Shown here piece by piece: positions 2,425 to 57,859 of a DNA stretch of 64,000 nucleotides; position 1 is the stretch's first letter, and each line of letters starts with the position of its first letter. The translations under genes and the position numbers were made by a program. The notes under the pieces are model-generated. The model was not told the DNA's origin, made no database searches, and saw only the letters and a list, made by a program, of their open reading frames with translations. The stretch is from a bacterium. GTDB lineage: Bacteria > JAAXHH01. Location: contig OZ241920.1 of the NCBI GenBank assembly GCA_965203885.1, positions 449,476 to 513,475 on the forward strand. The letters are read 5' to 3'.

Positions 2425-2484
2425 CAGGCCCGTGCGCGGCTTCGTGCCAGGGCGCAGGCCCGTGCGCGGCTTCGTGCCAGGGCG
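2425..2484. repeat. 30-bp direct tandem repeat x2 in the leader of the sigma-54 regulator operon
   Basis: caggcccgtgcgcggcttcgtgccagggcg occurs twice back-to-back at 2425-2454 and 2455-2484. The minus-strand reading contains CTGGCACGAAGCCGCG, which resembles a sigma-54 -24 element. Confidence 0.85.
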
Positions 2485-2500
2485 GTTCGGCGCCCTTTCG

Positions 2501-2529
2501 AAATTACGCCAACGCCGGGTTGATGTCAA
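2501..2529 (-). promoter_or_regulatory. candidate sigma-70 promoter for the response-regulator operon (TTGACA-N17-TAATTT)
   Basis: On the minus strand, TTGACA (complement of 2524-2529) is followed by a 17-nt spacer and TAATTT (complement of 2501-2506). This lies about 110 nt upstream of the start codon at 2386. Confidence 0.35.
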
Positions 2530-2577
2530 TCGTTAACGGGGCGTTCCGCCGCCCCGGGAGCGACTTGCCGCCGCGCA

Positions 2578-2667
2578 CCGCGATGGTCTGGCCGCGTGAC
2601 CCGGAGCGCCCGCCGCCGCGATCCGCGATGGTCTGGCCGCGTGCCGCGGGAGCGTTCCGATGCCGCG
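2578..2667. repeat. roughly 45-bp direct tandem repeat x2
   Basis: ccgcgatggtctggccgcgtg occurs at 2578 and again at 2623 with similar flanks. The position is intergenic between the regulator operon and the SDR gene. Confidence 0.7.
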
Positions 2668-2691
2668 CCCGGCACCGCGCTCCGGGCGGGG

Positions 2692-4845: not shown

Positions 4846-5172
4846 ATGCCCATCCGTCCCTATGAAGACGCCATCGTCGGCCTGACGCCCGCGGACGACA
4901 AGGTCCATCACATCCTCCCCGACTTCCAGCGGACCCGGACGGGCTGTCCGCACGGCGTGGAGTTCTGGGTAACGATCCGCACGGTCTCGCGGGATGACGA
5001 ACCGCTGATCCTGCAGTGGTGCATGACGTGCCGGCAGGTGGATGTCCTCAGGCTGGAAGAATACGACTGGCGCACGCGCCTAGAGGAGCTGCGGACGGAT
5101 GAGGTCGCGGACCGCCTGGACCGCCCGGACGGCCCGGACCGGCCGGACTGGCGGGAGCCGGACCTGGCGTAA
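4846..5172 (+). CDS. hypothetical protein (108 aa) with two Cys pairs (CPHG...CMTC)
   Basis: Intact ORF divergent from the formamidase gene. It has no obvious SD sequence. Its last 30 nt plus the stop codon are tandemly duplicated just downstream. Confidence 0.4.
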   Translation: MPIRPYEDAIVGLTPADDKVHHILPDFQRTRTGCPHGVEFWVTIRTVSRDDEPLILQWCMTCRQVDVLRLEEYDWRTRLEELRTDEVADRLDRPDGPDRPDWREPDLA

Positions 5173-5220
5173 ACGGAACCGGCCGGACGGCCGGACTGGC
5201 GGGAGCCGGACCTGGCGTAA
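5130..5220. repeat. 48-bp tandem duplication that includes the stop codon of the upstream ORF
   Basis: ccggactggcgggagccggacctggcgtaa occurs at 5143-5172 and again at 5191-5220. Confidence 0.85.
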
Positions 5221-5322
5221 ATGGATAGCCCGGATGGACTGGCGGATAGCCCGGACGGAACCGCCGGGCAGTCGACGACGAGAAATCTGGATCACGAATC
5301 AACCCTTCGAAGGAGCGCGGGC

Positions 5323-6317: not shown

Positions 6318-6396
6318 CGCGGCGGCTCAGGGGTTCCGGTTTTCGGCGGCTCAGGGGTTCCGGTTTTCGGCGGCTCAGGGGTTCCGGTTTTCGGCG
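6318..6396. repeat. 24-bp direct tandem repeat x3 at a convergent gene junction
   Basis: cggcggctcaggggttccggtttt x3. It overlaps the last codons of the PIG-L gene. Confidence 0.85.
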
Positions 6397-9044
6397 GCCG
6401 GCTGCGCCAGGCCGATCAGGTTGGCGAACAGCCTCACGGCCCCGGGCACGCCCGCGGGCAGCTGGCGGAACCAGGCGTAGCCCGTGTAGATATATCGCCC
6501 CTTGCCGTAGCGGGCTTCGACGAGTCCGCCGGCCCTGGGCGTCTCCCCCGGGTCCTGCGAGGCCATGAGCGGCGTGTAGCGGGGATCCCATTCTCCCAGG
6601 AAATACAGGCCGCGTTCCTGCACCCACCCTTCGAAATCGGTGTCCGTGATCCGGTTGGGCCGGTTGAATACGGGATGGTCCGGCACCAGGATGTCCACCG
6701 GCGCGTCTTCCCGCGTAACCCGGTCGTGGGGACGGTTTATCCGGAAGGGGTAGGGTCCGTACCGGTCCCGGTTGAAGGCGTACTTGTTGTACTGGACGAT
6801 GTAGACGCCTCCCGCCTCCACGTAGTCCAGCAGGCGCCGGTTCACGGCGACGAGATCCGGCCGGACTTCGTAGGCGCGGATGCCCGCGATGATCAGGTCG
6901 AAGGCCCCCAGGTCCGCCGAAGACAGGTCCTCCTCCGTCAGCAGCCGCACCCCCACGCCCATCTGCTCCAGCACGAGCGGCACCTGGTCGCCGGTGCCCA
7001 TGATGTAGCCCACGCTCAGCCCGTCCGGCAGTTCGACGGGCGTGACCTGCACGGTGGAGGCCGCGTCGCGGTACAGGTGCCTGGGTTCGATATGGGGATA
7101 GGCGATCACTTCGTATCCCTCGCGGTACGTCTTCCCGCCGGCCCTCGCCACCGCCCGCACCTCGTGGGCGCCTTCCGGCGCGCCGCCTGCCGGGACGATA
7201 GTGAAGTTGAACGTGGCGGCCTGTCCCTTCCCGGCGAACGACAGGGGCACTTCCCCGGGCGCGACTTCCCAGCCGTCCGGCGCCTCGAGCGCCAGTCCGC
7301 CTTCGATCCCGCCGTTCACGTTGCTGACCACGGTCGCGCTGAAGCGCAGGGGGCTTTCCCGCCCGGCCGCGGCGACCGCGACCCGCGGGTCCAGCGTGAC
7401 CGACAGCGCAGGCACCACCTGGAGTTCGCGGCGGATTTCGCCGAAGGCCCGGTCGGCGAAACGGTACTGCGCGGGCCGGCGGATTTCGATCTCGACGCCG
7501 TCCACGAGAACCCGGGCCCGTCCGGCCACGGGCTGGGGGCTCCAGGGCAGACCGATCAGCGACGTATCGTCGACCACGACCCGCCGGTCGTTCAGGGAGC
7601 GCCGATGCCAGTAGGGCCGGGTGAGCCGGGCGTCGGGGGGAACGGATACCCACCAGTCGCTTCGCACGCTTTCATTGTAGCCGATTTCCGCGGCCGGCTC
7701 GATCGGTCCGGCCGGTTTGTTCGGGACCGGATCGGTCGTGGCGGACCATCCCCCGGGCACGTCCAGGCCGAGGTGGGTGACGCGGACGGTCCGGTTGCTG
7801 CGGTTCAGCAGTTCCAGGTTGATCCCGAGCGTGTCGCCCGGGACCACCCGGTCCTCGTAGGTCAGCACCTCGAAGGCCAGGCCGAGAGCCCGTGCCGCCA
7901 CGACGGCGAAATCTTCTTCCTTCAGATCGAGCAGAAAAAGGATATCGGCGAGGGTGCCGGCCGGAAGCGTGCTTCGATCGAGATCGTCGCGAAGGGCCCG
8001 GATCGTCTTCAGGCCTTCCAGCACGGGATCCAGCAGGGCGGGCGGGTCCAGCGGCCGGTAGGCTTCCACCGCCTCGCGGGCCAGCGCGTCCAGCCGGCCG
8101 AGCCGGGCGGCGAATCCCGGGATCGCTTCGGCATCCGGACCGGCCATGGCATGCAGCCGCATGAAGGTCGTGTCGAGGCCGTCGAAGAGGTGGCCGTCCC
8201 CTTCCGTATCCGTCATGCCCGCGCGGGCCACCAGCTTGATCTTCGTGGTCGCCGGTCCCTTCGGCTGGATGGTCCCCATGTCCTGCGACCGATGCATGCT
8301 GCGGCCCGCCAGGCCGAGTTCGCGGTAGGACCGGTCCAGCACGGAGCTGTACGTCCCCACGTCGACCACCAGGGAATCGATGCTGTCGAATGACGCGCGG
8401 GTGTTGTTGATGTACAGCTTGCGGGCCTGCCAGGGACGCAGCCCTTCCCGCAGGTGTTCCGGGAACCGTTCCGGGTCGGCCGCGGCGTGGAACGCTTCCC
8501 GCGTGATCCTCCCCGATGCCTGGTGATGGCCGTGGCCGTCGCGGGGCGAATCGGCGAAGACGGATACGATCACGTCGGGGCGAAAGCGCCGTATGACGCG
8601 CACCACGTCCGACAGGACCATCTCATCCCCGTTCCAGAAGTCCAGGGTCTCCTCGGCGGACTTGGAAAAACCGAAGTCGTAGGTCCGGGTAAAATACTGC
8701 AGCGCCCCGTCGAATCGGCGCGCTGCCAGCAGCTCTTCCGTCCGGATCACACCGATGGCGTCGTACAGTTCGGGTCCGATCAGGTTCTGGCCGCCCTCGC
8801 CGCGATTGAGCGACAGGTAGGCCGTCCGCGCGTGCAGGCCGCGGCTGACATAGGCGACCAGGGCGCTGTTCTCGTCATCGGGGTGGGCGCCGGTGTGCAG
8901 CAGGCTGGCGACGACCGGCAGGCGAAGGACCGCCTGGGCGAGCGTGGCCGTCCCCTTGCCGTCGGGCACGGGCCGGATGGGTCCGGCCTCGGCACGGGTG
9001 GCGGAGCAGGCAAGCAGGATACACAGGATCAGACGCATAGGCAT
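6375..9044 (-). CDS. secreted PIG-L/LmbE-family deacetylase fused to large C-terminal domains (GATase1/ThuA-like)
   Basis: 889 aa. Signal peptide MPMRLILCILLACSATRA. The LmbE-type HPDDE motif is in the N-terminal domain. Confidence 0.75.
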   Translation of the reverse strand: MPMRLILCILLACSATRAEAGPIRPVPDGKGTATLAQAVLRLPVVASLLHTGAHPDDENSALVAYVSRGLHARTAYLSLNRGEGGQNLIGPELYDAIGVIRTEELLAARRFDGALQYFTRTYDFGFSKSAEETLDFWNGDEMVLSDVVRVIRRFRPDVIVSVFADSPRDGHGHHQASGRITREAFHAAADPERFPEHLREGLRPWQARKLYINNTRASFDSIDSLVVDVGTYSSVLDRSYRELGLAGRSMHRSQDMGTIQPKGPATTKIKLVARAGMTDTEGDGHLFDGLDTTFMRLHAMAGPDAEAIPGFAARLGRLDALAREAVEAYRPLDPPALLDPVLEGLKTIRALRDDLDRSTLPAGTLADILFLLDLKEEDFAVVAARALGLAFEVLTYEDRVVPGDTLGINLELLNRSNRTVRVTHLGLDVPGGWSATTDPVPNKPAGPIEPAAEIGYNESVRSDWWVSVPPDARLTRPYWHRRSLNDRRVVVDDTSLIGLPWSPQPVAGRARVLVDGVEIEIRRPAQYRFADRAFGEIRRELQVVPALSVTLDPRVAVAAAGRESPLRFSATVVSNVNGGIEGGLALEAPDGWEVAPGEVPLSFAGKGQAATFNFTIVPAGGAPEGAHEVRAVARAGGKTYREGYEVIAYPHIEPRHLYRDAASTVQVTPVELPDGLSVGYIMGTGDQVPLVLEQMGVGVRLLTEEDLSSADLGAFDLIIAGIRAYEVRPDLVAVNRRLLDYVEAGGVYIVQYNKYAFNRDRYGPYPFRINRPHDRVTREDAPVDILVPDHPVFNRPNRITDTDFEGWVQERGLYFLGEWDPRYTPLMASQDPGETPRAGGLVEARYGKGRYIYTGYAWFRQLPAGVPGAVRLFANLIGLAQPAAENRNP

Positions 9045-9207
9045 GGACGGGTCCCGGTTGGTGCGTGCGTGGATGCCGCGGTTGCGCCCGGTTGCGGCGC
9101 CCGGCGCCCGGACCGGCTGCGGGCTCTCCTAAGGTCGATTGTCATGACGGCGACCGGCGCCCGGCAGCGCCCGTCGGCGCCCGATCCGGCTGCGGGCTAC
9201 CGCCGGA

Positions 9208-10104
9208 TCAATCGTCCGGCAGCGCCCGGCGGTACAGCCAGAGGACGCCCGCCAGCGCGAGGAACAGGCCGATGAACATCCAGCCGAACCTGCGCCGGGT
9301 ATCGACCTCGGTGCGCGCGGTATCTACTTCTTTTCTGATATCCGGATAGATCTGTTCCAGCGAATCGACGACGGCGACCATTTTCTCGAGCACGAATACG
9401 TGGGAGGCCTGTTCGATATAGGCGTTCCGCGCCAGGGACGCCTGGTCCAGGATCAGGTCGACCGGGACGCCCGCGGCCCTGATCTCCTCTGCCTCCCGCC
9501 GGAATGCGTTGATCGGCTCGAGCCCCCGGTCCGATAGGGCGATGAAATCGTCCATGATTTCCTGCTCGTGGCAGTCTTCGCAGTTATCGGGAATGGAAAT
9601 CAGGGACGCCTGGGGATAGACCACTTCATGGTGATCGTGGCAGTCCACGCAGTTGGGCCAGAAATCCCCCTCGAGGCCATGGGGGCTGGGCACGTAGTTT
9701 ACCATCTGGACCTGGTGGCACTCGCCGCACAGTTCATGGACCACATAGGGGTCGGGCAGGCCCACAAAATCCCGTTCAAGATCGTGCGCCTCGTCCTCCA
9801 CCATGGTGGCGGGGTTCCCGCCGTGGCAGTCCTGGCAGGAGATGTCCGCGGGAAGGTGCGCGCTCCGCCGCCATTCGGCCACGGGCAGGCTCATGTCCTC
9901 GTCGTCCAGGCCGGCGTGACAGGTGACGCAGGTGTTGGTCGACGCGGCCGGTTGGGCCGCCGCGGGACCGGCGGCCGCCACGAAAAAGAACAACAGGGCC
10001 AGGAGGATGAGGGCCGTCAGCCCGGGGCGTTGCGCGGTCCGGTCCTGCAGGGCGGTACGCGGAACGTTCCCGGCGCCGTACCCGGCGTGCGTCCGTGCGC
10101 TCAT
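9208..10104 (-). CDS. pentaheme c-type cytochrome with C-terminal membrane anchor, subunit of a Rieske/cytochrome b complex
   Basis: Five CxxCH motifs (CVTCH, CQDCH, CGECH, CVDCH, CEDCH). An N-terminal signal/TM (LTALILLALLFFFVAAAGPAAA) and a C-terminal TM. Start assigned to the ATG at 10104 (MSARTHAGYG), which overlaps an upstream stop as ATGA. The track's longer start at 10242 lies inside a 77-bp duplication. Confidence 0.8.
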   Translation of the reverse strand: MSARTHAGYGAGNVPRTALQDRTAQRPGLTALILLALLFFFVAAAGPAAAQPAASTNTCVTCHAGLDDEDMSLPVAEWRRSAHLPADISCQDCHGGNPATMVEDEAHDLERDFVGLPDPYVVHELCGECHQVQMVNYVPSPHGLEGDFWPNCVDCHDHHEVVYPQASLISIPDNCEDCHEQEIMDDFIALSDRGLEPINAFRREAEEIRAAGVPVDLILDQASLARNAYIEQASHVFVLEKMVAVVDSLEQIYPDIRKEVDTARTEVDTRRRFGWMFIGLFLALAGVLWLYRRALPDD

Positions 10105-10255
10105 TCGTCCTCCCCGCCGTCCGTGGCCGGTCCGGCCGCCGGTTCCTCGACGGTCGCGATGGCATGGGTCCGTGCGCTCATTCGTCCTCCCCGCCGCCCG
10201 TGGCCGGTCCGGCCGCCGGCTCCTCGACGGTCGCGATGGCATGGGGCCAGCCGTA
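10101..10255. repeat. 77-bp tandem duplication spanning the cytochrome b stop / cytochrome c start junction
   Basis: Copy at 10101-10177 and copy at 10178-10254. The duplicate reproduces the last 22 codons of cytochrome b as a 26-codon mini-ORF (MSARTHAIATVEEPAAGPATDGGEDE) bounded by ATGA overlaps. Confidence 0.85.
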
Positions 10256-15654: not shown

Positions 15655-15740
15655 CCGGCCGTGTCCGCCCGCGCCAGGCCGGGCCGCCCGCGCCAGGCCG
15701 TGTCCGCCCGCGCCAGGCCGGGCCGCCCGCGCCAGGCCAC
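15655..15740. repeat. 40-bp direct tandem repeat x2 (or 20 bp x4)
   Basis: ccgtgtccgcccgcgccaggccgggccgcccgcgccaggc occurs twice in tandem, immediately upstream of rnpB. Confidence 0.85.
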
Positions 15741-15827
15741 TTCCGGCCGTCCGGCAGTCATTTCTTCGGCCGCCGGGGTTGAACCGCGCCGCGTCCCTGG
15801 TTATATTGTAACTGTAAAACGTCCCAA

Positions 15828-16203
15828 GTCGTCCAGGCGATCGCGTTCGCCGGCAAGGCGGACGAGGAAAGTCCGAGCACCGCAGGGCGGGATGCCTGCT
15901 AACGGCAGGGGGCAGTGATGCCACGGAAAGTGTCACAGAAAACACACGGCCGATCCCTTCGGGGAGGCAAAGGTGAAAAGGTGAGGTAAGAGCTCACCGC
16001 GGTCCGGGTAACCGGTCCGGCAGGACAAACCCCATCCGGTGCAAGACCGAATAGGAGAGGAGAGACGGCCCGTCTCGACCGCCGGGAAACCGGAGACTCT
16101 CGGGTAAGGTCGCACGAGGCGGCTGGCGACAGCCGTCCCAGATAGATGATCGCCACCTTCACCGCGAAGGCACAGAACTCGGCTTACGGCCGGCTTGGAC
16201 GTT
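15828..16203 (+). ncRNA. rnpB: RNase P RNA, bacterial type A
   Basis: Conserved regions are present in order. CR-I GAGGAAAGUCCG. The P10-P12 block AAGGUGAAAAGGUGAGGUAAGAGCUCACC. CR-IV/V ACAGAACUCGGCUUA. P1 pairing between 15830-15838 and 16193-16201. An AT-rich patch (ttatattgtaactgtaaaac) lies just upstream. The ORFs overlapping this interval are spurious. Confidence 0.85.
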
Positions 16204-19516: not shown

Positions 19517-19652
19517 CGTGCGCCGGACCCGGGCCGGATCAGGTGCGGACCCGAACGGCCCCGCGCCGGACCCGAACGGACCGGACCCGGGATCCAGGGT
19601 GCGATGAGCCAGGATGTACCATGACGTACGGGACAGAATCCAGGAGGGACAC

Positions 19653-33749: not shown

Positions 33750-33916
33750 AAGAAGTTACATGTCCGTCAAACCGGGTCAACTCCATTCTCACGGGGATGG
33801 GGCAACGGCGGGAACCCCTTGTCTGTCTGCCCGCAGCAACAGCCTTCGCAGAACACGATCTGCCCGAGCACCTCGCCACGGTTCGTAGCCAGTGGTTCGT
33901 GCTTGGCGAGGGTTAC

Positions 33917-34070
33917 GCGGATGCGTTGCGTTTGAGCGTTCACGCTTGTTGTGCTTCCTGCGCTTGTTGCGCGCGATGACGACGTTTCGCGGATGCGTTG
34001 CGTTTGAGCGTTCATGCTTGTTGTGCCTGTTGTGCTTGTCGTGCGTGTTGACGTTTGCGGATGCGAATCA
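33917..34070. repeat. roughly 70-bp direct tandem repeat x about 2.2 overlapping the 3' end of the PepSY gene
   Basis: gcggatgcgttgcgtttgagcgttca[c/t]gcttgttgtgc occurs at 33917 and 33989, with a partial copy at 34057. Confidence 0.8.
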
Positions 34071-37933: not shown

Positions 37934-37976
37934 CTAGTGCTCCTTGGTGAGTGGTTCGTTGGTGAATGGTTTCGTC

Positions 37977-38438: not shown

Positions 38439-38548
38439 GGGTTTCTCCTCGCCATGCACTTCTTCGTGGCGGCCGGTTGCGAACAGCGGCGATCACGGAC
38501 TGCGGAAATCCTGCGGACAAGACATGTACGCCCGTTCTCCTGAACCGA

Positions 38549-40362: not shown

Positions 40363-40390
40363 TCCACTGAAAGGACGGAAGTTATGGCGA

Positions 40391-41128: not shown

Positions 41129-41136
41129 CGTCGAAC

Positions 41137-41201
41137 TCATAGCGGGTGTCGTACTCATAGCAGGTGTCGTACTCATAGCGGGTGTCGTACTCATAGCAGG
41201 G
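41137..41201. repeat. 18-bp direct tandem repeat x about 3.6 at the 5' end of znuC
   Basis: tcatagc[g/a]ggtgtcgtac x3 plus a partial copy. On the minus strand each copy carries an in-frame ATG. Confidence 0.85.
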
Positions 41202-41354
41202 CCCAGACGACCGCAAACCACAATAGACCGGCGGCGCCGCCGACAAGTGCCAGACGGGCTACGATGCCGGCCCGCAGGGGAGAGAATCCGGATTTATTCA
41301 TTAATTGCGACATGACAATACGCGCGAGTAATCGAGGCGCCGCTCACCTTACGA

Positions 41355-41445
41355 GGCGCCGCCCACGGTTTGGGGCGCGGCCCACAGTCCGTGCCGCCGC
41401 CCACCGTTTGGGGCGCGGTCCACAGTCCAGCCGCCGCCTACCGTT
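41355..41445. repeat. roughly 36-bp direct repeat x about 2.5 between the NicO-like gene and znuC
   Basis: gccgcccac[g/c]gtttggggcgcgg[c/t]ccacagtcc repeats. Confidence 0.75.
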
Positions 41446-42479
41446 TACAAATCCACTATATGATTCAGTACAAAGGACGCGTTCAGCGCCCACAGTCCCA
41501 TAAGCAACAGTAGGGCACCGCCCACCGCGCCCAGGCCGGCGGCCGCGAGTGTCCACAACGGCGACCGGTGCGCGACCATCTCACTCGCCAGGTCTCGCGC
41601 CTTCGTCGCGATAACGGCCAGGGTTACGATGGTGATCGCGGTACCTGTGGACATGGCGATAACGGAAAGCGCGCCATGCCAGATCAAATCCATCACGGCG
41701 GCAATGACCAGCACGAACACCGCTCCGGTGCAAGGGCGCAGTCCAATGGCCAGCACCAGGCCGGCCGCCGCGTGCCGGCTGCCGGCCGTATCTATCTCGG
41801 CAGCGCTCGGCAGATGCCGGCAGCTGCCACCTTCCCCTTCCGCTTGATCGGCATGGTCGTGGCGGACTTCGCCGGGTTCGCCCCGCAACTGGCGAACACA
41901 CGCGGGCACGGCGCGCGCGGCGCGTATCAGCAAGTAGAGTCCGACCAATGCCAGCATGGCGAAACTGACTCGCGTAGCCCACAAGGATGCGGATTCCGTC
42001 TCAATCGGCAGCCGACCAGCCAGACCAATCGGAACGTAAACAATCAACAGCGCCGTCACGCCTTGCAGAAACGCAGCTGCCGCGCCCATGGCGATACCGC
42101 GGTTCAGCCGGCTTCGATGGGTCATCAGGTAGGTCGTCAGCACGACTTTCCCGTGCCCGGGCCCCGCGGCGTGCAAGACCCCGTAAACAAAGCTCATCAG
42201 CACCAAAGCCCAGCCGACGCTGTTCTGGCCGCGCATCGAGCCCAGCTCCTGCGTCAGTTGCAGGAGGAATTCGTTCTGCTTTGTCCAGATCCAGGTCGCC
42301 GTCTGATCCCAGATCGCAACCGCCTGTGGGGTGCCGGCGAGACTTTCAGCGCTGGGTTGTCCGGCGTCGACAGGCTCGCCCGGCAGCATCGTTGTCGCGT
42401 AGAGATCCGCCGAGCATGCGATGGCGCATAGCCATGCGAGACAGACTGCCATGTACCCACTCACGCGCATCATATGCAT
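41445..42479 (-). CDS. NicO/RcnA/HoxN-family metal-cation permease with signal peptide and His-rich loop
   Basis: The family signature HAAGPGHGK. A second half-site motif. His-rich loop HDHADQAEGEGGSCRH. Start set at the ATG cluster MHMM at about 42479. The track start at 42551 lies inside the 34-bp repeat leader. Confidence 0.75.
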   Translation of the reverse strand: MHMMRVSGYMAVCLAWLCAIACSADLYATTMLPGEPVDAGQPSAESLAGTPQAVAIWDQTATWIWTKQNEFLLQLTQELGSMRGQNSVGWALVLMSFVYGVLHAAGPGHGKVVLTTYLMTHRSRLNRGIAMGAAAAFLQGVTALLIVYVPIGLAGRLPIETESASLWATRVSFAMLALVGLYLLIRAARAVPACVRQLRGEPGEVRHDHADQAEGEGGSCRHLPSAAEIDTAGSRHAAAGLVLAIGLRPCTGAVFVLVIAAVMDLIWHGALSVIAMSTGTAITIVTLAVIATKARDLASEMVAHRSPLWTLAAAGLGAVGGALLLLMGLWALNASFVLNHIVDL

Positions 42480-42510
42480 CGAACAGTCACCTTTAAAACA
42501 AACGGAATGC

Positions 42511-42630
42511 CGGGTCATCGCCGATCGCTTCATTGCAGCCAGTCGGGTCATCGCCGATCGCTTTCATTGCAGCCAGTCGGGTCATCGCCGATCGCTTTCA
42601 TTGCAGCCAGTCGGGTCATCGCCGATCGCT
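42511..42630. repeat. 34-bp direct tandem repeat x about 3.6 in the 5' leader between the Zur box and the NicO-like start codon
   Basis: cgggtcatcgccgatcgctttcattgcagccagt occurs at 42511, 42544 and 42578, with a partial copy at 42612. Confidence 0.9.
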
Positions 42631-42634
42631 GACT

Positions 42635-42654
42635 GTAATGTTATAACATAACAA
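42635..42654. promoter_or_regulatory. Zur box (perfect palindrome ATGTTATAACAT within TGTAATGTTATAACATAACA)
   Basis: A 12-bp perfect inverted repeat matches the core of the proteobacterial Zur consensus (GTTAT-A-ATAAC). It lies immediately downstream of the -10 of the promoter at 42664-42691. Confidence 0.7.
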
Positions 42655-42663
42655 AACAGACAC

Positions 42664-42691
42664 ATAATAGCATGTCGAGATTCGTTGTCAA
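42664..42691 (-). promoter_or_regulatory. sigma-70-type promoter TTGACA-N16-TATTAT driving the Zur-controlled minus-strand cluster
   Basis: Minus-strand TTGACA (complement of 42686-42691), a 16-nt spacer, then TATTAT (complement of 42664-42669). The Zur box starts 10 nt downstream of the -10. Confidence 0.55.
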
Positions 42692-42765
42692 GCCCAAGAT
42701 TAAATACTGCGTTAAAAAAGGCTGCCCGTGGAGGGTCATTCGTGCCGGCAAAGTACCCGCCTGAC

Positions 42766-42791
42766 ACAAAAAAGCCGCTCTTACGAGGGCT
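42766..42791 (-). terminator. candidate rho-independent terminator downstream of guaA
   Basis: Minus-strand AGCCCTC-GTAA-GAGCGGCT hairpin followed by TTTTTT (complement of 42768-42773). Confidence 0.4.
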
Positions 42792-42868
42792 GATCAGATA
42801 TTCGATGTAATCAGGTGCGGGGCGTTGCTGGAGGTGGGTTCAGTTGCCGGGCGTTGCTGGAGGTGGAA

Positions 42869-44481: not shown

Positions 44482-46953
44482 TCAACGTGCTTCGTCCAGC
44501 GTAGAAAGTAGTTTTTCAAGGGCGTTCTCACCCGAAGTCACCCGGAGTTCGATATCCACCGCGGCCAGGTGGTTGACGATGGCGTGGTCCGGCGGGATCC
44601 GTACGGCGTCCTTCTCCGTCGTGACGATGCATTCCGCGCCCGATCCTTCCGCCAGGGACACCGCCCGGTCCAGCTCGGAAGGGGTGAAGGGGTGGTGATC
44701 CGGGTAGGCCAGGACCCGGGTCACGCGTGCCCCGGCATCGGCGACCGTTCGCGCGAAGGAGGCGGGATTGGCGATACCGCAGAGGACAAGGACGTTGCGT
44801 CCGGCCAGCCACTCCACCGGCAGCGTCCCGTCGTCCGAAGACAGCGTCCCGTCGTCCGAAGACAGCGTCCCGTCGTCCACCAGCCGCCGCAGTCCCGCGG
44901 GGTGGTAGACTGTTTCGATCAGGGCCAGGTGGGGGAATTCGCCCTTGATGCGCGCCGTATCTACAACCGCGGAACGGGCCTGGTCCGTCCGTGTCAGGAC
45001 CAGTGCGTGTGCCCGGCCGAGCGAGGATGCCGGTTCGCGGAAGGGACCCGCCGGGAGCAGGCTCACGGGGGACAGCCGGTTGGACGCGTCGTGTACCACG
45101 ATGTCTATCTCGCGGCCGGTCCTCCGGTGCTGGAATCCGTCGTCCAGAATCAGCACGTCCGCGCCATGCCGGTCAATGGCCAGCCGTCCCGACGCGGTGC
45201 GGCTCGGGCCTACGATCACCGGCACGTCGGGAAGCGCCGAGGCCAGGAAGGCCGGTTCGTCGCCGACTTCCTGCCAGGTGGCGCCCGGTGCAGCGGCCCG
45301 GGTCGCGCGGGAGTTTCTTCCGTAGCCCCGGCTCAGGACGGCGGGCCGGTAACCGGCCTGCTTCAGCCGGCCGGTGAGGAATCGCACCACGGGCGTCTTG
45401 CCCGCGCCGCCCGCGGTCAGTGCGCCGACGCTGACCACTGGGACAGAAAGCCGGTCGGAATCCATCAACTTCATGTCGTACAGACAGTTGCGGAGCCTGA
45501 CCACCATACCCATCAGCAGGGACGGGGGGAGGAGCGCGGTGCGCATGAGACGAATGCCCGGGGCGCGCTCGCCGGGGTCCATCAGCCGGGTAATGAACGG
45601 GGTGCCTTGCGGGAAGCGCGACGGATAGCTCGACGAGTAACGCGATGTGTAACGCGGCAACCCGGATTCGCTTAGATCCGGGTCCAATATCCACCTGTCG
45701 ACCAGGTCCAGGGTGCGGTCCACGGCCCTCGAGCTTTCGCGTACGGCCTGGCCGGCGGCCGCACCCGTCCGCGCACGCTTCTGCGGGTCTTCCAGCAATT
45801 CGAGCCATTGCCTTGCGAGTTCGTCGCCGTCGCGTACGACCAGGCCTCCGCCGGTTCGCAGCAGGGCCGCCTCGCTTGCCCGGACGTTCTCGGTGTGGGG
45901 GCCGAACAGAACCGGTATGGAGCAGGCCGCGGGCTCCAGCAGGTTGTGCCCGCCGAGGGGGACCAGCGTGGCGCCGACGAAGGCCATGTCCGCGGCGGCG
46001 TACATGGCCGAAAGTTCGCCCATGGTGTCCAGGATGATTACATCGAAATGGACGGGGTCCCGCGTGTCCTGGCGGGTTCGGTGGGCGTACGCGAGTCCCG
46101 CCCCCCGCAGCATCTCCTCTACCTCCGGTACGCGGTTGAGATGCCGCGGCGCCCAGATCAGCCTTACCTCGGGATGCCGTTCGTGGACGCGGGCGAAGGC
46201 CGCCAGGACGGCTCTTTCCTCTTTCACGGGCCGGGGGCATCCCGCCATGATCACCGGTACGGACGCGGAGAGGCCGAGTTCACGGCGCAGCGCTTCTCGC
46301 CCGGGGCCCGCCTGTTCGGCGGCCAGGTCGAATTTTACGTTGCCCGTCACCCGCACCCGTTCCGGGTCCGCGCCATAAGCGATGAGCCGTTCACCGTCGA
46401 GCGCATGCTGGACACCCACGGCGGCCAGGCGCCGCAGCATGTGCCTGAACAGCGGTCTCACGAAACGGTTCCGCGCGAGACTGCGGTCCGACATGCGGCC
46501 GTTGACCAGGGCTACGGGGCAGTCGTGGGCGGCGGCCGCCTCGAGCATACCGGGCCAGAGTTCCCCCTCGAGCAGAATCAGTGCGCGGGGGCGTACCCGT
46601 CCGAATACGCGGCGGACGATGAACGGCGCGTCGAGGGGCGCCAGTCCGTGATACCGTGCCTGCCTTACATGCTGCCTGACATAGGCCAGGCCGGTCTCGG
46701 TCGTGGTGGTCACCAGCACGGCGAAACCGGGATGACGCTCCACGAAGCGGCTAACCACGGCCGCCAGGCCGGTGGCCTCGCCCACGGAGGCGCAGTGGAA
46801 CCAGACGACAGGGCGATTCTCGTCATCGTCGATTAGCGGCCGCTGGCCGAGCCGCTGGCGCATCCCGTAGCAGTCCAGGATGGACAGGCAGGCCAGGACC
46901 GGAGAGAACAGCACGGTCAGCGTGGAATAGAGCAGGATGTAGATTAAGTTCAT
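44482..46953 (-). CDS. bifunctional Kdo transferase (WaaA/KdtA) - tetraacyldisaccharide 4'-kinase (LpxK) fusion
   Basis: The N-terminal half has the WaaA signature WFHCASVGE. The C-terminal half has the LpxK P-loop VVSVGALTAGGAGKTP. The linker contains DDGTLSSDDGTLSSDDGTL from an in-frame 21-bp x3 repeat (about 44820-44880). Confidence 0.85.
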   Translation of the reverse strand: MNLIYILLYSTLTVLFSPVLACLSILDCYGMRQRLGQRPLIDDDENRPVVWFHCASVGEATGLAAVVSRFVERHPGFAVLVTTTTETGLAYVRQHVRQARYHGLAPLDAPFIVRRVFGRVRPRALILLEGELWPGMLEAAAAHDCPVALVNGRMSDRSLARNRFVRPLFRHMLRRLAAVGVQHALDGERLIAYGADPERVRVTGNVKFDLAAEQAGPGREALRRELGLSASVPVIMAGCPRPVKEERAVLAAFARVHERHPEVRLIWAPRHLNRVPEVEEMLRGAGLAYAHRTRQDTRDPVHFDVIILDTMGELSAMYAAADMAFVGATLVPLGGHNLLEPAACSIPVLFGPHTENVRASEAALLRTGGGLVVRDGDELARQWLELLEDPQKRARTGAAAGQAVRESSRAVDRTLDLVDRWILDPDLSESGLPRYTSRYSSSYPSRFPQGTPFITRLMDPGERAPGIRLMRTALLPPSLLMGMVVRLRNCLYDMKLMDSDRLSVPVVSVGALTAGGAGKTPVVRFLTGRLKQAGYRPAVLSRGYGRNSRATRAAAPGATWQEVGDEPAFLASALPDVPVIVGPSRTASGRLAIDRHGADVLILDDGFQHRRTGREIDIVVHDASNRLSPVSLLPAGPFREPASSLGRAHALVLTRTDQARSAVVDTARIKGEFPHLALIETVYHPAGLRRLVDDGTLSSDDGTLSSDDGTLPVEWLAGRNVLVLCGIANPASFARTVADAGARVTRVLAYPDHHPFTPSELDRAVSLAEGSGAECIVTTEKDAVRIPPDHAIVNHLAAVDIELRVTSGENALEKLLSTLDEAR

Positions 46954-50266: not shown

Positions 50267-50270
50267 GCAC

Positions 50271-52407: not shown

Positions 52408-52546
52408 GAGAAGCGGACAGGAAATTCGGCGTAGGAGGCGTCCCGGTTATTCCGGCGTTAGAAGCGTCCAGGGATTCGGTGAGGACGCACGCCAGCTATT
52501 CAGTCAGGACGCACGCCGGCGCCTCGGTGCTCATGCACACCGGGAC

Positions 52547-54523
52547 CTACCTCGAAGTCAACCAGTCCCAGAAGCCGGTGGACTCCTGCTCATCGGCCGA
52601 TTCCAGGACATCCTCCGAGATATACAGCGTCGGCATCAGGTTCAGCATCTGGTTGCCCCGCCACGCCTTGTATCCCCAATTGTTGGTCTCCAGCGCGGCG
52701 CCGCGCACGTAGGGCCGCCACATCTCATTGATCAGGGTGTACCAGAGGAACACGCCGCCCACGTCGCGGACGAGGATCTCCTCCGCCTCCTGGTATAGCG
52801 CGGTGCGCCGGACCGGGTCTCCCACCAGCACGTTCGCCCGAAGCACCAGGTCTTCGAAGCGCTTGTTGTACCAGGGATGCCTGCCGTTCGACAGCCACAG
52901 CGTGAGCAGGTTGCTCGCGTCGACGTAATCGTAACGGTAGGGGATGAGCGCCAGGGTGATTTCCCGGGCATTCATCGCCTCCGTAAACACCTTCCGCTCC
53001 ACGTTCCGTACGCCGACTTCGACGTTCAGGTTCTGTTTGAGCATGGCCTGTACCGCCTCGGCGGCCGTGGCGTTCACGATCGTTTCTCCCCTGAGCCACA
53101 TGCTAACGGCGGGGAATCCCCTGCCGTCCGGGTAACCGGCTTCAGCCAGGAACCTGCGAGCCAGGTCCGGATCGTACCGTTGTATGGAGGCCAGCGCTTC
53201 CGTGTTGGCCGCGGGGAACCCCGGCTGCAGCATGGACGAAGCCGGCAGCCCGATATCCCGCAGGGCGGAGTTCATGAGCGAGGCCTGGTCGACGGCGTGG
53301 CTGAATGCCTGGCGGACCCGCAGGTCGTTGAAGGGAGGATTGTGGGTGTCCAGCATCAGGTAATAGGTCTGAAAATCCACGTAGGTGTTCAGGTGGTCCT
53401 TCAGCGAAGGGATGGACTTGACCCGGTTGATCTCGGCCTGGTTGCTCAGCACGATGTAGTCGACTTCGCCGGCCTCGTAGGCGGCGAGGTAGGGCGGCTG
53501 CGCGGCGGCGTTGAAGAGCTGCGCCGTGATGCGTTCCAGGTAGGGCTTGTTGGGGCCCCGGTACGTGGGACTCGGCTCGAGGACGATGTGGCCGTTGATC
53601 GTCCATTCCCTGAGCCGGAAGGGTCCGTTGCCCATGTGGGTCTCCGGTCGGGTCGACCAGGCCGGCCCGTATTTCTCGAACAGGTGGGTGGGGGTCACCC
53701 AGCTGTAGTTGAGCAGCTCCGGCGCGTAGGGCGTCGGCTGGGTCGTGGTGAAGGCGATCGTATGCTCGTCCAGCGCTTCGACGCCCAGGGAATCCAGGGG
53801 CATGCGGCCGGCCACGACCTCGCCCCAGTTCCTGATGGGCCGGTAGTACCATTCGAAATCGAACCCGGTCTTCGGATCGGCCCAGCGAAGGAACGAAGCC
53901 TCGTAGTCGTAGGCCGTGACGGGCCGGCCGTCGCCGAAGACCAGGTCCCGCTGCAGATGGAAAATCCACGTGTGGCCGTCTTCGGTCACCTCCCAGTGCG
54001 TCGCCGCGGCGGGGAGCAGGTTGAAGTCCCGGTCGACCCGGGTCAGCGGCTCGTTGGTCAGGGCGAAGCCGAAGATCTTCTGGTACGAGGACGTGGCCCG
54101 GTCCATGAACCGGTTGTTCAGCTCGAAGGTGCGCAGGTGCTGGTATTCCGGCGGCGCGGCGTCCGCGGGAAGGGGGACGCCCACGGAGTTGACGTGGATC
54201 GATTCATCCTGGTCGGGAGGGTCATCGCGGGAACTGGCGCGCTCCCCGACGGAGTTGGCGCGCTCCCCGACGGAGTTGACACGCTCCCCGACGGTGTTGA
54301 CGCGCTCCCCGACGGTGTTGACGCGCTCCCCGACGGTGGCGCGCGCGGGCTGTTCCTGGTCATCCGGGCTGGTGACGGAATCAACCCGAGGCGGCTGATC
54401 CTGGTCATCTGGCTCGCTATCGGAAGCGCCCAACAGGGTGGCGCACATAAGCGCCATCGAACCAGTCAACATCGTCGCCAGGGCGAGGATGCTCCATTTT
54501 TTTATGTTTAATGGCATAGGCAT
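52547..54523 (-). CDS. family 5 (OppA/DppA-type) ABC transporter substrate-binding lipoprotein, paralog 1
   Basis: SBP_bac_5 fold across about 520 aa. The N-terminal linker contains (VGERVNT)x5 from in-frame 21-bp tandem repeats (about 54230-54320). Confidence 0.85.
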   Translation of the reverse strand: MPMPLNIKKWSILALATMLTGSMALMCATLLGASDSEPDDQDQPPRVDSVTSPDDQEQPARATVGERVNTVGERVNTVGERVNSVGERANSVGERASSRDDPPDQDESIHVNSVGVPLPADAAPPEYQHLRTFELNNRFMDRATSSYQKIFGFALTNEPLTRVDRDFNLLPAAATHWEVTEDGHTWIFHLQRDLVFGDGRPVTAYDYEASFLRWADPKTGFDFEWYYRPIRNWGEVVAGRMPLDSLGVEALDEHTIAFTTTQPTPYAPELLNYSWVTPTHLFEKYGPAWSTRPETHMGNGPFRLREWTINGHIVLEPSPTYRGPNKPYLERITAQLFNAAAQPPYLAAYEAGEVDYIVLSNQAEINRVKSIPSLKDHLNTYVDFQTYYLMLDTHNPPFNDLRVRQAFSHAVDQASLMNSALRDIGLPASSMLQPGFPAANTEALASIQRYDPDLARRFLAEAGYPDGRGFPAVSMWLRGETIVNATAAEAVQAMLKQNLNVEVGVRNVERKVFTEAMNAREITLALIPYRYDYVDASNLLTLWLSNGRHPWYNKRFEDLVLRANVLVGDPVRRTALYQEAEEILVRDVGGVFLWYTLINEMWRPYVRGAALETNNWGYKAWRGNQMLNLMPTLYISEDVLESADEQESTGFWDWLTSR

Positions 54524-54697
54524 CGAAGAGTAATTGGCCGAACGTCGCCGCGCGGATGCTGCCGCGAAACTCCTCCGCCGTCACCGGCCGGCCAGCGCAC
54601 ACCGCGGTCCGCCGGAATTCCGTGTCGCGAAACGCCTCTGCCGCTGCCGCGAAACGCCTCTAACGTCATCGGCCGGCCAGCGCACACCGCGGTCCCG

Positions 54698-56536
54698 TCA
54701 TCGGCCGGTGAGCCAGCTCCACGGTCCGCCGGGCTTCCGTGCCGCCTTTTCCCGGGTTACATCCTCGGTAATGTAAATCGTCGTCATCAGGTTCAGCATC
54801 TGGTTTCCCCGCCATGCCCGGTATCCGGATTCGTTCGGTTCGAGCGCGTCGCCGCGGATGTAGGGACGCCACATCTCGTTGACCAGGTCGTGCCAGAGGA
54901 ACACGCCGCCCACGTCGCGGACCAGGATCTCCTCCGCTTCCTGGTAGAGCCGCGTACGGCGATCGGGGTCGCCCACCAGTTGGTTGGCCTGCTCGATGAG
55001 TTCTTCGTATCGTTCGTTGCGCCACGGATGGCGGCCCCGGGACAGAAACAGGTTGAGCAGGTTGCTGGGGTCCAGGTAGTCCCATCCGTAGGCGATCATG
55101 GACAAGGGGATTTCCTTGGCGTTCATCGCTTCCGTGTAGACTTTCCGTTCCACGTTCAGGACCTCGACGTCGATATTCAGGTTCTGCTTCAGCATGGCCT
55201 GTATGGCCTCGGCAGCCACCTTTCTCAGGTATGCTTCGCCGCGCAGCCACATGTCCATGACTGGGAATCCCCTGCCGTCGGGATAACCCGCTTCCGCGAG
55301 CAGGCGGCGGGCCCTTTCCGGGTCGTACCGTTGTATATGCGCGAGCGCTTCGGTATTGGCGGCCGGGAATCCCGCCGGCATCAGGGATACGGCGGGGACC
55401 GCGATGTCCTTCAGGGCGGACTTCATGATGGCCGGCTGGTCGATGGCGTGGCTAATGGCCTGGCGGACGCGCAGGTCGCTGAAGGGCGGGACCCGGGTGT
55501 CCATGAAGAGATAGTACGTGGTGAAATTGGTATAGGTGTTCAGGTGGCTGCGCAGCACCGGGTCGGAACGGGCCCGGTTGATCTCGGCCGGGTTGTTCAG
55601 CGGGACGTAGTCGACCTCGTTCGCCTCGTAGGAGGCCAGGAAGGGCGGCTGGGCGGCCGCGTTGTACAGCCGGGCGATGATCCGTTCGAGGTAGGGCGTG
55701 CTGGGACCGGGGTAGGTGGGACTCGGTTCCAGGACGATGCGGTCGTTGATCGTCCACTCCTTGAGCCGGTAGGGACCGCTCCCGATGTGCGTTTCGGGCT
55801 TGGTGGACCAGGCCGCGCCATGCTTCTCGAACTGATGCGTGGGCGTCACCCAGCTGTAATTGAGCAGCAGCGGCGCGAAAGGCGCGGGCCGCGTGGTCAT
55901 GAAGGCCAGGGTATGCGGGTCCAGCGCTTCGACGCCCAGCGAATCCAGCGGCATCTTCCGCGCGACGACGGCGCCCCAGTTCCTGATGGGCCGGTAATAC
56001 CATTCGAAATCGAATCCGATGTCCGGGTCCGCCCACCTGCGGAACGTGTCCTCGTAGTCATAGGCGGTGACGGGCTTCCCGTCTCCGAAAACCATGTCCT
56101 TCCGGAGATGAAAGACCCAGGTGTGGCCGTCATCGGTCACCTCCCAGTGGGTGGCGGCGGCGGGCACCAGGTTGAAATTGCGATCTACCCGGTTGAGGGG
56201 CTCGTTCGTCAGGGCGAACCCGAAGGACTTCTGGTAGGAGGACGTGGCCCGGTCCATGTACCGGTTGTTCAGTTCGAAAGTCCGCAGGACCTGCAAGGCG
56301 GGCGGCGCGGCGTCCGGGGGCAGCGTCACGCCGACGGAATTCACCCGGCCGGACGGACCTTGCGCACTGGGCGGACCAGGCTGACCGGGCTGACCGGGCT
56401 GACTGGGCTGACCGGGGGTTTCAGGCGGACCAGGCGGACCAGGCGCACCAGGCGGTTCGGTGGGATAGCCCGATGCCAGGGCAACGGCGACCGTGAGGAT
56501 ACAGGCAGGAAGTACCAGGAGGATCTTCGACCGCAT
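54698..56536 (-). CDS. family 5 ABC transporter substrate-binding lipoprotein, paralog 2
   Basis: About 70 percent identical to paralog 1 in the SBP domain. Lipobox LVLPAC. Collagen-like linker PGAPGPPGPPETPGQPSQPGQPGQPGPP from 9-bp repeats. Confidence 0.85.
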   Translation of the reverse strand: MRSKILLVLPACILTVAVALASGYPTEPPGAPGPPGPPETPGQPSQPGQPGQPGPPSAQGPSGRVNSVGVTLPPDAAPPALQVLRTFELNNRYMDRATSSYQKSFGFALTNEPLNRVDRNFNLVPAAATHWEVTDDGHTWVFHLRKDMVFGDGKPVTAYDYEDTFRRWADPDIGFDFEWYYRPIRNWGAVVARKMPLDSLGVEALDPHTLAFMTTRPAPFAPLLLNYSWVTPTHQFEKHGAAWSTKPETHIGSGPYRLKEWTINDRIVLEPSPTYPGPSTPYLERIIARLYNAAAQPPFLASYEANEVDYVPLNNPAEINRARSDPVLRSHLNTYTNFTTYYLFMDTRVPPFSDLRVRQAISHAIDQPAIMKSALKDIAVPAVSLMPAGFPAANTEALAHIQRYDPERARRLLAEAGYPDGRGFPVMDMWLRGEAYLRKVAAEAIQAMLKQNLNIDVEVLNVERKVYTEAMNAKEIPLSMIAYGWDYLDPSNLLNLFLSRGRHPWRNERYEELIEQANQLVGDPDRRTRLYQEAEEILVRDVGGVFLWHDLVNEMWRPYIRGDALEPNESGYRAWRGNQMLNLMTTIYITEDVTREKAARKPGGPWSWLTGR

Positions 56537-56547
56537 GCCTACTCCGT

Positions 56548-57624
56548 TCAACCGTCATTCGGTTTGCGCACCTCGACGGGCTTCTGGTACAGCATGGTAA
56601 GGATCTCGGTGAACTGCAGCGGGCTGACCCCCACGCCGTCTACGTGTACCTCCCAGTGGAGGTGCGCGGCGGTCACCCGGCCCGTGGCTCCCGACAGTCC
56701 CAGCAACTGTCCCCGGGATACCTCGTCCCCTGGCTTCACGTACAGCCTGCTCATGTGAGAGTACCCGGTGTGGATGCCCATGCCGTGCTCGATCAGGACA
56801 TGGTTTCCTGAGTAGAACAGGTTCTGCGCCAGCTTGACCACGCCGGACTGCGCGGCGTACAGGGGCGTCCCTTCGTAGGCCCGCAGGTCGAGGCCGCCGT
56901 GAAAACTCCGGAGCTGCCCGTTGAACACCCGGCGGGTCCCGTACGGACTGGTGATCGTTTTCTTCTCCACGGGATAGCGGAACGTGTCTACCATCATGGC
57001 CGTGTCACGGACCGCCTCGTATGCCGCCGCGATGATCCTGCGTTCCCGCGCAATGCGCCGGAAGTCCGCGGCCGAGGGTGTAACCCGGTTCTGCGGCACG
57101 CCGCGGATCTGCTCCGACCGGTATGGCCCGGCCACCACGCTGAAGGGCAGATCCCGGCCGAAGATCCGGTCGCTTTCGGTCCACTCCACGTGCAGGGTAT
57201 CCGGGCCCGGCGCCGCGCCATAGGGTATGCCGATGAGGGTGAACAAGGTGCCGTCGGATTCAGTAGGATGAGGGTACAGGCGATGGATCCGGTCACCCGT
57301 CGAAACGGTCAGATCAGCCACGGGACCTGCCGGACCAGCGAGATCGTCCCGCGCCGAAGGAAGATCAGCCTGCATCCCGGGATAGTCCGCCGACCCGTCT
57401 ACTTCACGGTCCGGCGCGCCGACTTTCCTATCGGAGGAAGGACCGGCCTTCGCGCCGGGATCGTCCGGGATATACTCCAGCAAAAGGGTGTGACCGTTCG
57501 CCACCCGCTCATCGGAAAGGCGGAGCGAGAATGCTCCCTCTCCCAGATAGGCCCGTGGTGCGTGGAAGAAGGGCTCGCCGCCCAGGCAGACGGCGGTCAG
57601 AACCAGGGTAAGCACTAGATTCAT
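56548..57624 (-). CDS. M23-family metallopeptidase (lysostaphin/LytM-like), secreted
   Basis: Signal peptide. C-terminal M23 domain with HxxxD (FHGGLD) and HxH (HLHWEVH) zinc ligands. Confidence 0.8.
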   Translation of the reverse strand: MNLVLTLVLTAVCLGGEPFFHAPRAYLGEGAFSLRLSDERVANGHTLLLEYIPDDPGAKAGPSSDRKVGAPDREVDGSADYPGMQADLPSARDDLAGPAGPVADLTVSTGDRIHRLYPHPTESDGTLFTLIGIPYGAAPGPDTLHVEWTESDRIFGRDLPFSVVAGPYRSEQIRGVPQNRVTPSAADFRRIARERRIIAAAYEAVRDTAMMVDTFRYPVEKKTITSPYGTRRVFNGQLRSFHGGLDLRAYEGTPLYAAQSGVVKLAQNLFYSGNHVLIEHGMGIHTGYSHMSRLYVKPGDEVSRGQLLGLSGATGRVTAAHLHWEVHVDGVGVSPLQFTEILTMLYQKPVEVRKPNDG

Positions 57625-57859
57625 GGAACAGGGCGGGAGTCCGGGTCGATCAGCGTTTACACAGGGACTGGTCCGGCTGATATCACCGGCGTGGGCGACA
57701 TCACCGGCCAGGGCGATACCACCGAACCACGGTATACTTTATCATTATACCCCATTTGCGAATCCCAAAACAGTTTTTTGAACCGGCTGGTCAATCCGCC
57801 GGCCGCGGGGGCTTCGGCGGGCAACCCTCGCTACCGGGCAACCCTCGCTACCGTGGATG

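Follow-up and report, generated by a model that had tools for sequence, protein, structure and literature searches.

The 64-kb stretch of bacterial DNA presented here (contig OZ241920.1 of assembly GCA_965203885.1, positions 449,476 to 513,475; hereafter the window) raises the question of why so many of its gene junctions carry short sequences repeated head to tail. An initial annotation of the same DNA had seen in these tandem arrays the trace of an unusually active duplication or slippage process. The arrays are a known kind of feature, bacterial minisatellites or variable-number tandem repeats (VNTRs), and not a new system, but they occur at about ten times the usual density, and this excess is inherited within a single genus-level subclade of an uncultured lineage whose members are labelled Latescibacterota or Gemmatimonadota. 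We consider it probable that these locus-specific minisatellites, and with them the clade-wide excess, result from local duplication and from misalignment between the copies, and that they are kept where they do no harm.

Number, kind and position of the arrays

Tandem Repeats Finder (TRF), run over the whole window, returned 80 rows, which merged into 31 arrays at a score of at least 50. Two of these are ordinary repeats of a leucine-rich repeat (LRR) protein; about 25 are genuine arrays of the minisatellite or VNTR type, with units of 9 to 77 bp in two to five copies, each built from its own local sequence. TRF gave periods of 9–77 bp and copy numbers of 1.9–5.9, many arrays matched at 92–100%, and eight contained perfect periodic stretches of at least two units. 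All the loci listed by the initial annotation were recovered by TRF and direct-repeat scans, and its description of perfect or near-perfect head-to-tail repeats without spacers was borne out by TRF; most of its unit sizes were right, and four had to be corrected (39 bp instead of 40, 72 instead of 70, 38 instead of 36 and 29 instead of 22).

When only arrays with a period of at least 12 bp and a score of at least 70 are counted, the window holds 21, i.e. 3.3 per 10 kb, whereas the rate in 77 other bacterial loci predicts about 2.1 for 64 kb (Poisson P ~ 1e-14). No array passing the same thresholds arose when the window was simulated 20 times with a third-order Markov model. Arrays occupy 16% of the non-coding bases of the window. 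As a term of comparison, a multi-genome study of E. coli reported 18 variable non-PU minisatellite loci (units of at least 20 bp, identity of at least 90%) for one strain set (PMC2884548); in these 64 kb alone, ten arrays reach the same unit length and identity.

The arrays share with minisatellites and VNTRs the head-to-tail units of about 10–100 bp, the intergenic or in-frame position and the strain differences by whole units, which are attributed to slipped-strand misalignment. Such loci serve for strain typing by multiple-locus VNTR analysis, for example the ETR, QUB and MIRU-VNTR loci of Mycobacterium tuberculosis and those of Yersinia pestis and Bacillus anthracis. What differs here is the far higher density and the fact that the excess is limited to a single genus-level clade within an uncultured lineage. 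Simple-sequence contingency loci are less similar: their units of 1–9 bp shift reading frames or promoter spacing, whereas the arrays of the window have units of mostly 15–77 bp and keep the frame in 12 of the 13 cases that lie in coding sequence.

The position of the arrays was assessed on gene models of our own, built from a codon-usage score and Pfam support, by which 13.4% of the window is non-coding. In 18 of the 31 arrays, half or more of the length is non-coding (binomial P = 7e-9), so that the concentration at gene boundaries described initially was upheld; the claim that the arrays are intergenic does not hold for all of them, since the other 13 lie mostly inside genes. In 12 of these 13 coding arrays the period is a multiple of 3, and the reading frame is therefore kept. 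Their translations are low-complexity linkers and tails, such as VGERVNT x5, a PGQ-rich segment, the (GGGD[DV]A)n tail of LpxB and the inter-domain linker of KdtA-LpxK. Several nominally intergenic arrays span a stop or start codon (those at 6320, 41130 and 10084–10245, and the 42-bp MeaB array). About 86% of the sequence nevertheless remains coding, and the genes observed appear intact. A duplication across the end of a gene always leaves one intact end, so the pattern of positions would follow from unbiased duplication filtered by selection, with no need for targeting. It should be noted that filtering by selection would by itself be enough to give this bias towards boundaries, which is a caveat to reading it as a sign of active duplication.

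Intergenic and intercistronic positions are also typical of REP and MIRU elements, and one might suppose that the arrays belong to a single dispersed mobile family (REP/BIME, MITE or MIRU-like) whose relatedness has been missed. When the doubled units were compared all against all on both strands, only matches of 8–9 bp were found (E 0.25–1), as expected by chance and therefore not of a REP, MITE or MIRU family; this agrees with the initial view that the sequences are locus-specific, and the shared core that would have refuted that view was not found. Compared with the rest of the window, the units gave only short matches of up to 21 bp, no more than chance would give. In addition, the orthologous junctions of sister species hold arrays of unrelated units, and single-copy orthologues show that each unit is local sequence, gene ends included. 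A mobile family is thus hardly credible.

The closest resemblance to MIRUs is found at the junction of the cytochrome b and c genes. MIRUs are tandem units of 40–100 bp that lie in the intercistronic spacers of operons and contain small open reading frames (ORFs) overlapping the flanking stop and start codons. The 77-bp duplication at this junction likewise preserves the stop/start overlaps: it has produced a 26-codon mini-ORF, MSARTHAIATVEEPAAGPATDGGEDE (10101–10181, minus strand), running from the stop of cytochrome b (ATGA) to the start of cytochrome c (ATGA), and coupling is kept at both ends because the period, 77, equals 2 modulo 3. The arrangement is conserved across three strains. The likeness extends in part to the znuC array, every 18-bp unit of which holds the ATGA overlap between the stop of an upstream small ORF and the znuC start, and to none of the other loci; moreover, MIRUs are a dispersed family with a shared consensus, whereas each locus of the window has its own sequence taken from the local gene junction.

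A CRISPR array was excluded, as it had been in the initial annotation: the units abut directly, the period equals the unit length, and Pfam scans of 46 of the larger ORFs of the window showed no Cas domains. In an Rfam search of the window, the only RNA found was RNase P RNA, which adjoins the 39-bp array without overlapping it; there were no tRNAs.

Strain variation and origin of the duplications

Relatives were found by exact-protein matches and by a search for GuaA homologues, and were compared over pieces of about 21 kb. Five proteins of the window had no identical entry in the collection used for the exact matches, so the genome of the window itself was not recovered there. Two to three strains, L001/L084 (ERZ26693420 contig_2) and L002, belong to the same species as the window (97–99% nucleotide identity). 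The sister species are L083 (about 92%) and L168 and L085–L087 (about 88–89%; L086 is GCA_022822725.1), and more distant relatives are L003 and L169 (about 83–85%) and L004 (CBDAUD01) and L170–L172 (about 78–79%; L170 is ERZ26694896 ctg117998).

Copy number differs between strains by whole units in independent assemblies, the comparison that the initial annotation had recommended. The 24-bp array at 6320 has 2.3 copies in L002, 3.3 in the window and 5.3 in L001; L084 is shorter by 68 bp (2 x 34) at 42511 and by 36 bp (2 x 18) at 47700, and differs by one 38-bp unit at 41352. Among five strain pairs at 1.0–2.7% substitution divergence, 5–12 indels of at least 4 bp were counted per ~20 kb, against 0–7 of 1–3 bp. 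All nine indels of at least 4 bp between the window and L001 lie in repeat tracts, as do most of those in the other pairs (a 46-bp indel at 3472 and a 92-bp one at 51610 are among the exceptions). Between strains, an array changes about once per 1–3% of divergence. From the 45-bp array at 2567–2656, 45 bp have been lost in L001 and a different 59 bp in L002; the two losses are therefore independent, and the array is older than the split of the strains.

These data also bear on the concern that the arrays might be assembly artefacts, i.e. false tandem copies produced where reads were wrongly joined or strain bubbles linearised. All these sequences, the window included, do come from metagenome assemblies, and the MeaB gene, intact in the window and in L002, is split into two calls in L001 (2417–3356 of that sequence), where either a frameshift error of sequencing or a strain-specific pseudogene may be responsible. 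Arrays recur, however, at identical loci in separate assemblies from different samples (L001/L084, L002, L083 and L168) and differ between them by whole units, and so they are not artefacts. Their units of 17–77 bp are below the typical read length, and point substitutions between copies are common to several strains. This alternative, left standing by the initial annotation, can be set aside as practically untenable.

A further difference by whole units was seen between L085 and L086, which are about 99% identical: at 12479–12591 of L085 they differ by 75 bp, i.e. five 15-bp units of an in-frame GHDHA repeat. This is the histidine-rich tract of a NicO-like metal permease, and its variation could affect function.

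The 3' end of guaA gives the clearest view of how an array begins. The outgroup L085 is single-copy there and contains two occurrences of the 10-bp sequence CGCCCGGCAC at a distance of 41 bp; in L083 and L168 precisely the 41 bp between these repeats are duplicated, whereas the duplication found at this site in the window and in L084 is another one, of 29 bp. The difference indicates recurrent independent events, one of them mediated by microhomology. At the 52468 locus, the near-single-copy allele of L083 retains a 12-bp direct repeat at the spacing of the unit. As to growth, TRF found nested periods (19 into 39, 18 into 36, 19 into 38 and 38 into 77), which, with the gains and losses of whole units, fit later slipped misalignment between copies.

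On this basis, a course of events in two steps can be envisaged. Unique DNA would first be tandemly duplicated, mostly with 0–6 bp of homology at the ends and in two cases between direct repeats of 10–12 bp. Misalignment between the copies during replication or recombination would then add, remove or partly delete units, giving rise to the nested periods and to the differences between strains. Arrays would persist only where the insertion is harmless, that is in spacers, across stop or start codons, and in frame in disordered linkers or tails.

Similar events are known as microhomology-mediated tandem duplications in S. pombe (PMC8639346). They too are local duplications of unique sequence between short direct repeats, and they revert easily; the 41-bp event at guaA fits this description. 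Most events here differ in having at most 6 bp of end homology, and many of the arrays now exceed two copies and have lasted through divergence at the species level.

Distribution among relatives and causes of the excess

One TRF setting and one filter were used for all sequence sets. Density was 2.8–3.8 arrays per 10 kb in the same-species strains and 2.3–4.5 in the sister species (L083, L168 and L085–L087), 1.4 in L003 and L169, 0.46 in L004 and 0 in L170–L172, which include one contig of 3.76 Mb whose name suggests a circular long-read assembly. The 77 unrelated guaA-centred loci (1.27 Mb) gave 0.32 per 10 kb (0.43 for the subset with guanine plus cytosine (GC) content of at least 0.60), and 80 further metagenomic loci, obtained by a GuaA search of metagenome contigs in which the nearest match had only 61% identity, gave 0.29. 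Sister species have a similar density with different units, often at identical junctions: between the LpxB tail and the DUF374 start, the arrays are 18 bp x4.3 in the window, 33 bp x3.9 in L085, 48 bp x2 in L083 and 30 bp x2.2 in L003.

The species-representative genome closest by GuaA (96% amino-acid identity) is a metagenome-assembled genome (MAG) labelled Candidatus Latescibacterota; other close relatives are labelled Gemmatimonadota. Sponge-associated Latescibacterota MAGs have been reported to encode LRR, WD40 and TPR proteins (PMC12993501), and from this likeness and the labels the array-rich clade is probably sponge-associated as well. A very large compositional shift was observed in L005 (CAZQGS010000048.1), a fairly close relative (81% amino-acid identity in GuaA) with a GC content of 40% against 65% in the window.

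The unusually active duplication or slippage initially proposed is supported by the roughly tenfold density, by the two independent duplications at one site and by the dominance of arrays among indels, from which a high rate would follow. Slippage or misalignment would be the mechanism, and the excess would come from a raised mutational input rather than from better retention.

Several points weigh against this explanation. Where a duplication consists of two perfect copies, the homology at its ends amounts to 0, 2 or 4 bp, and the other single-copy alleles have 1–6 bp at unit spacing; classical slippage primed by microhomology is shown for two events only. The density could reflect weak purging instead of high input. 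Of the 18 arrays scored as non-coding, 12 have a period divisible by 3 where about 6 are expected, and, although two of them (41130 and 56349) are really coding, this excess is not predicted by a pure neutral-spacer model. Finally, the background loci are all guaA neighbourhoods, mostly from short-read MAGs, and a density said to be genome-wide is an extrapolation from 64 kb of the window genome and pieces of ~21 kb of its relatives.

The mostly short end homology makes a homology-poor origin of the founding duplications possible, whether by template switching, by the ligation of flaps or by the filling-in and joining of staggered ends. It is conceivable, if unlikely, that these duplications stem not from slippage but from homology-independent repair, either fill-in and end-joining of staggered breaks of the Ku/LigD type or ligation of displaced flaps left unprocessed by a weak Pol I 5'-nuclease or FEN-type activity, the clade excess marking the gain or loss of such an activity. 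The junctions just described and the abrupt onset within a genus-level clade would agree with it. Yeast rad27 (FEN1) and E. coli polA 5'-exonuclease mutants accumulate tandem duplications of tens of bp with very short flanking repeats, which the unit range of 15–80 bp seen here seems to resemble; the spectrum appears alike, and the analogy would be one of mechanism only. On the other hand, two events did occur between direct repeats of 10–12 bp, and divergence erodes microhomology, so that a signal of at most 6 bp is weak evidence.

A broader proposal along the same lines, which we put forward only tentatively, is that the clade has acquired a heritable mutator state for tandem duplication (in flap processing, end-joining or polymerase template-switching) that would generate homology-poor duplications of 15–80 bp throughout the genome at no less than about ten times the usual level. 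A repair-deficient lineage had also been suggested initially, and as regards recJ, the part of that suggestion which the window covers, the gene was found present and intact: it extends over ~16279–17988, encodes DHH, DHHA1 and RecJ_OB domains, and gives a product whose alignment with known structures of RecJ (8y30, E = 4e-95) shows the DHH and GGHH motifs where they belong. Loss of RecJ as a cause was accordingly ruled out.

Rather doubtful is the view that mutational input is ordinary and that duplications are simply retained more often, because purifying selection is relaxed or the deletion bias weak in a population of small effective size that is restricted to a host. The organism does look like a sponge symbiont, judging from its LRR, WD40 and TPR proteins (PMC12993501), and the identity of copies ranges from 100% down to about 62%, i.e. 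the arrays are of varied age. Against it stand the high coding density with genes that look intact, the quick turnover of arrays, with different deletions in two strains, which is not mere accumulation, and the fact that the array-poor relatives come apparently from a similar sample series.

As a last alternative, the arrays might be selected as contingency or regulatory elements, copy number tuning leader length, promoter spacing or translational coupling, and variability being itself adaptive. Several arrays do lie in 5' leaders or by promoters, such as the 34-bp array in the NicO leader; the array over the znuC start codon has been held at 3–4 copies across lineages 89–97% identical (L084, L083 and L168, with a strain difference of 18 bp), the 77-bp junction array is retained in three strains, and the excess of multiples of 3 outside coding sequence could be read in the same sense. 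However, no rule of sequence or position is common to the arrays, which are also found after stop codons and between convergent genes, where regulation is unexpected; their rate of change is seemingly far slower than classical phase-variable switching; and in related species other units have taken the place of those seen here. As a general explanation, readings based on function find no support, and we regard this one as quite improbable.

Catalogue of arrays and neighbouring genes

The window is a chromosomal segment of 65% GC with ordinary housekeeping genes. They include genes for a sigma-54 activator, a cytochrome bc-type complex, RecJ, MeaB, SMC, GuaA, the lipid A proteins LpxB and LpxK, a ZnuABC/CobW/Fur cluster, solute-binding proteins and an LRR protein of 1362 residues. 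The arrays and other features are collected in Table 1.

Table 1. Tandem arrays and other features of the window (coordinates of the window; strand where assigned)
Position	Strand	Feature	Context	Evidence and differences among relatives
823..871	-	9-bp x5.4	in frame inside sigma-54 activator gene (656–2386, minus)	TRF; strain indels of 9, 18 and 27 bp at 857–883
2425..2484		perfect 30-bp x2.0 (100%); zero end microhomology	~40–100 bp upstream of sigma-54 activator start	TRF; present in L002, 19-bp deletion inside array in L001
2567..2656		45-bp x2, pair at 2567/2612 (89%)	farther upstream in sigma-54 activator spacer	direct-repeat scan
5108..5225		9-bp x4.6, then 48-bp x2, pair at 5140/5188 (97%)	3' end of small ORF, upstream of class IV aminotransferase gene	TRF and direct-repeat scan; L002 shorter by 39 bp and 20 bp
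6320..6398		perfect 24-bp x3.3 (100%)	between convergent genes; terminal TGA of PIG-L-domain gene in every unit	TRF
9084..9198		diverged 42-nt repeat at 73-bp spacing, and 10-bp x2.7	PIG-L / cytochrome c spacer	TRF and direct-repeat scan; strain indels of 10 bp and 5 bp
10084..10245	-	77-bp x2.1 (95%)	duplicates cytochrome b stop / cytochrome c start junction (ATGA overlap)	TRF; both copies in L001 and L002
12059..12145		24-bp x3.6 (77%)	5' end of TPR protein gene	TRF
15657..15738		perfect 39-bp x2.1 (100%), from 19/20-bp sub-units	between CT398-like gene stop and RNase P RNA gene	TRF; 1–3 copies among strains
15825..16201	+	bacterial RNase P RNA, class A		Rfam, 274 bits
18939..19061		42-bp x2.8 (97%)	begins at MeaB stop codon, upstream of B12-binding-domain gene	TRF; L001 18 bp shorter
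19522..19590		10/11/21-bp arrays	upstream of amidohydrolase gene	TRF; L001 and L002 longer by 9–62 bp
near 21360 and 48960		weaker repeats		direct-repeat scan
33612..42868		~9.2-kb zinc-homeostasis cluster: PepSY_TM, WD40, CobW, Fur-family regulator (37977–38459), ZnuA/B/C, small ORF, NicO-like permease	between guaA and Helicase_C_3 gene	see text
33912..34065		72-bp x2.2 (84%), nested 9/18-bp periodicity	3' end of PepSY_TM gene	TRF; 72 bp x2.2 in L084 too
41130..41200	-	18-bp x3.8 (94%; TRF 41130–41197), 36-bp higher order	over znuC start codon; in frame, MSTTPA x4	TRF
41352..41446		38-bp x2.5 (87%)	directly 3' of NicO-like gene stop	TRF
42511..42630	-	34-bp x3.6 (98%)	5' leader of NicO-like gene, between strong promoter with palindromic operator (predicted) and start codon	L083 carries 34-bp x2.6
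42638..42691	-	near-consensus promoter, TTGACA-16-TG-TATTAT, 11/12 matches	upstream of NicO-like gene	
42811..42866		29-bp x1.9 (92%)	directly after GuaA stop	TRF
44821..44878	-	perfect 21-bp x2.8	in frame, linker of KdtA-LpxK fusion protein	TRF; absent in L083 and L168; older, diverged repeat in L085
47700..47776	-	18-bp x4.3	in frame, (GGGD[DV]A)n C-terminal tail of LpxB	TRF
52468..52521		24-bp x2.2	between convergent genes	TRF
52547..56551		two tandem SBP_bac_5 genes		apparently two in L170 too; one in L085/L086
54238..54338	-	21-bp x4.8	in frame (VGERVNT x5), N-terminal linker after signal peptide, solute-binding protein	L169 orthologue has unrelated perfect 21-bp x4 array in N-terminal region
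54664..54727		32-bp x2.0 (81%)	across 3' end of second solute-binding protein gene	TRF
56349..56455	-	9/18/27-bp	in frame, PGQ-rich linker behind signal peptide	
57682..57853		18-bp x2.4 (57682–57724) and perfect 17-bp x2.1 (57818–57853)	spacer between M23 peptidase gene and LRR protein gene	
59573..59912 and 60995..61144		72-bp arrays	24-residue leucine-rich repeats of one protein; separate phenomenon	
62355..63022	-	HepT-like ribonuclease (PF01934) and nucleotidyltransferase (PF01909)	toxin-antitoxin-type pair	

The zinc-homeostasis cluster is present in the array-rich L084, L085, L086 and L168, and its NicO end also in L083; in L003, L004, L169 and L170, guaA directly abuts the helicase gene and the cluster is missing. 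No integrase was seen at the cluster. The promoter of its NicO-like gene is followed by a perfect palindrome, ATGTTATAACAT (42638–42649), by appearance a candidate Zur/Fur-type operator, and the 34-bp array separates this putative operator from the start codon.

Upstream of the sigma-54 activator gene, each unit of the 30-bp array (2425–2484) contains on the minus strand CTGGCACGAAGCCGCGCA, which may be compared with a sigma-54 -24/-12 element (GG and GC are correctly spaced), the match being weak and made by eye. A TTGACA-17-TAATTT promoter picked by eye upstream of the same gene was not called by the promoter scan and was not relied on.

The longest RecJ ORF, starting at 16195, overlaps the RNase P RNA, and so the start of RecJ is more likely near 16279. 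The two SBP_bac_5 genes represent a tandem duplication on the scale of whole genes beside short arrays. The toxin-antitoxin-type pair lies in the sole low-GC stretch of the window (57% GC, 62–64 kb).

Arrays of this kind could mislead the automated choice of start codons, and the starts in our own gene models tended to be truncated at them. As markers they could serve directly for strain typing in an uncultured symbiont, and where they differ in copy number this should not be taken for an error of assembly. If the clade does have a mutator state for tandem duplication, about one sixth of its intergenic DNA would have turned into minisatellites, and linkers, junctions and leaders would be continuously reshaped. 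The phylogenetic onset of the excess is sharp; if the excess extends over the whole genome, the comparison of array-rich with array-poor sister genomes could reveal a gene change that controls short tandem duplication.

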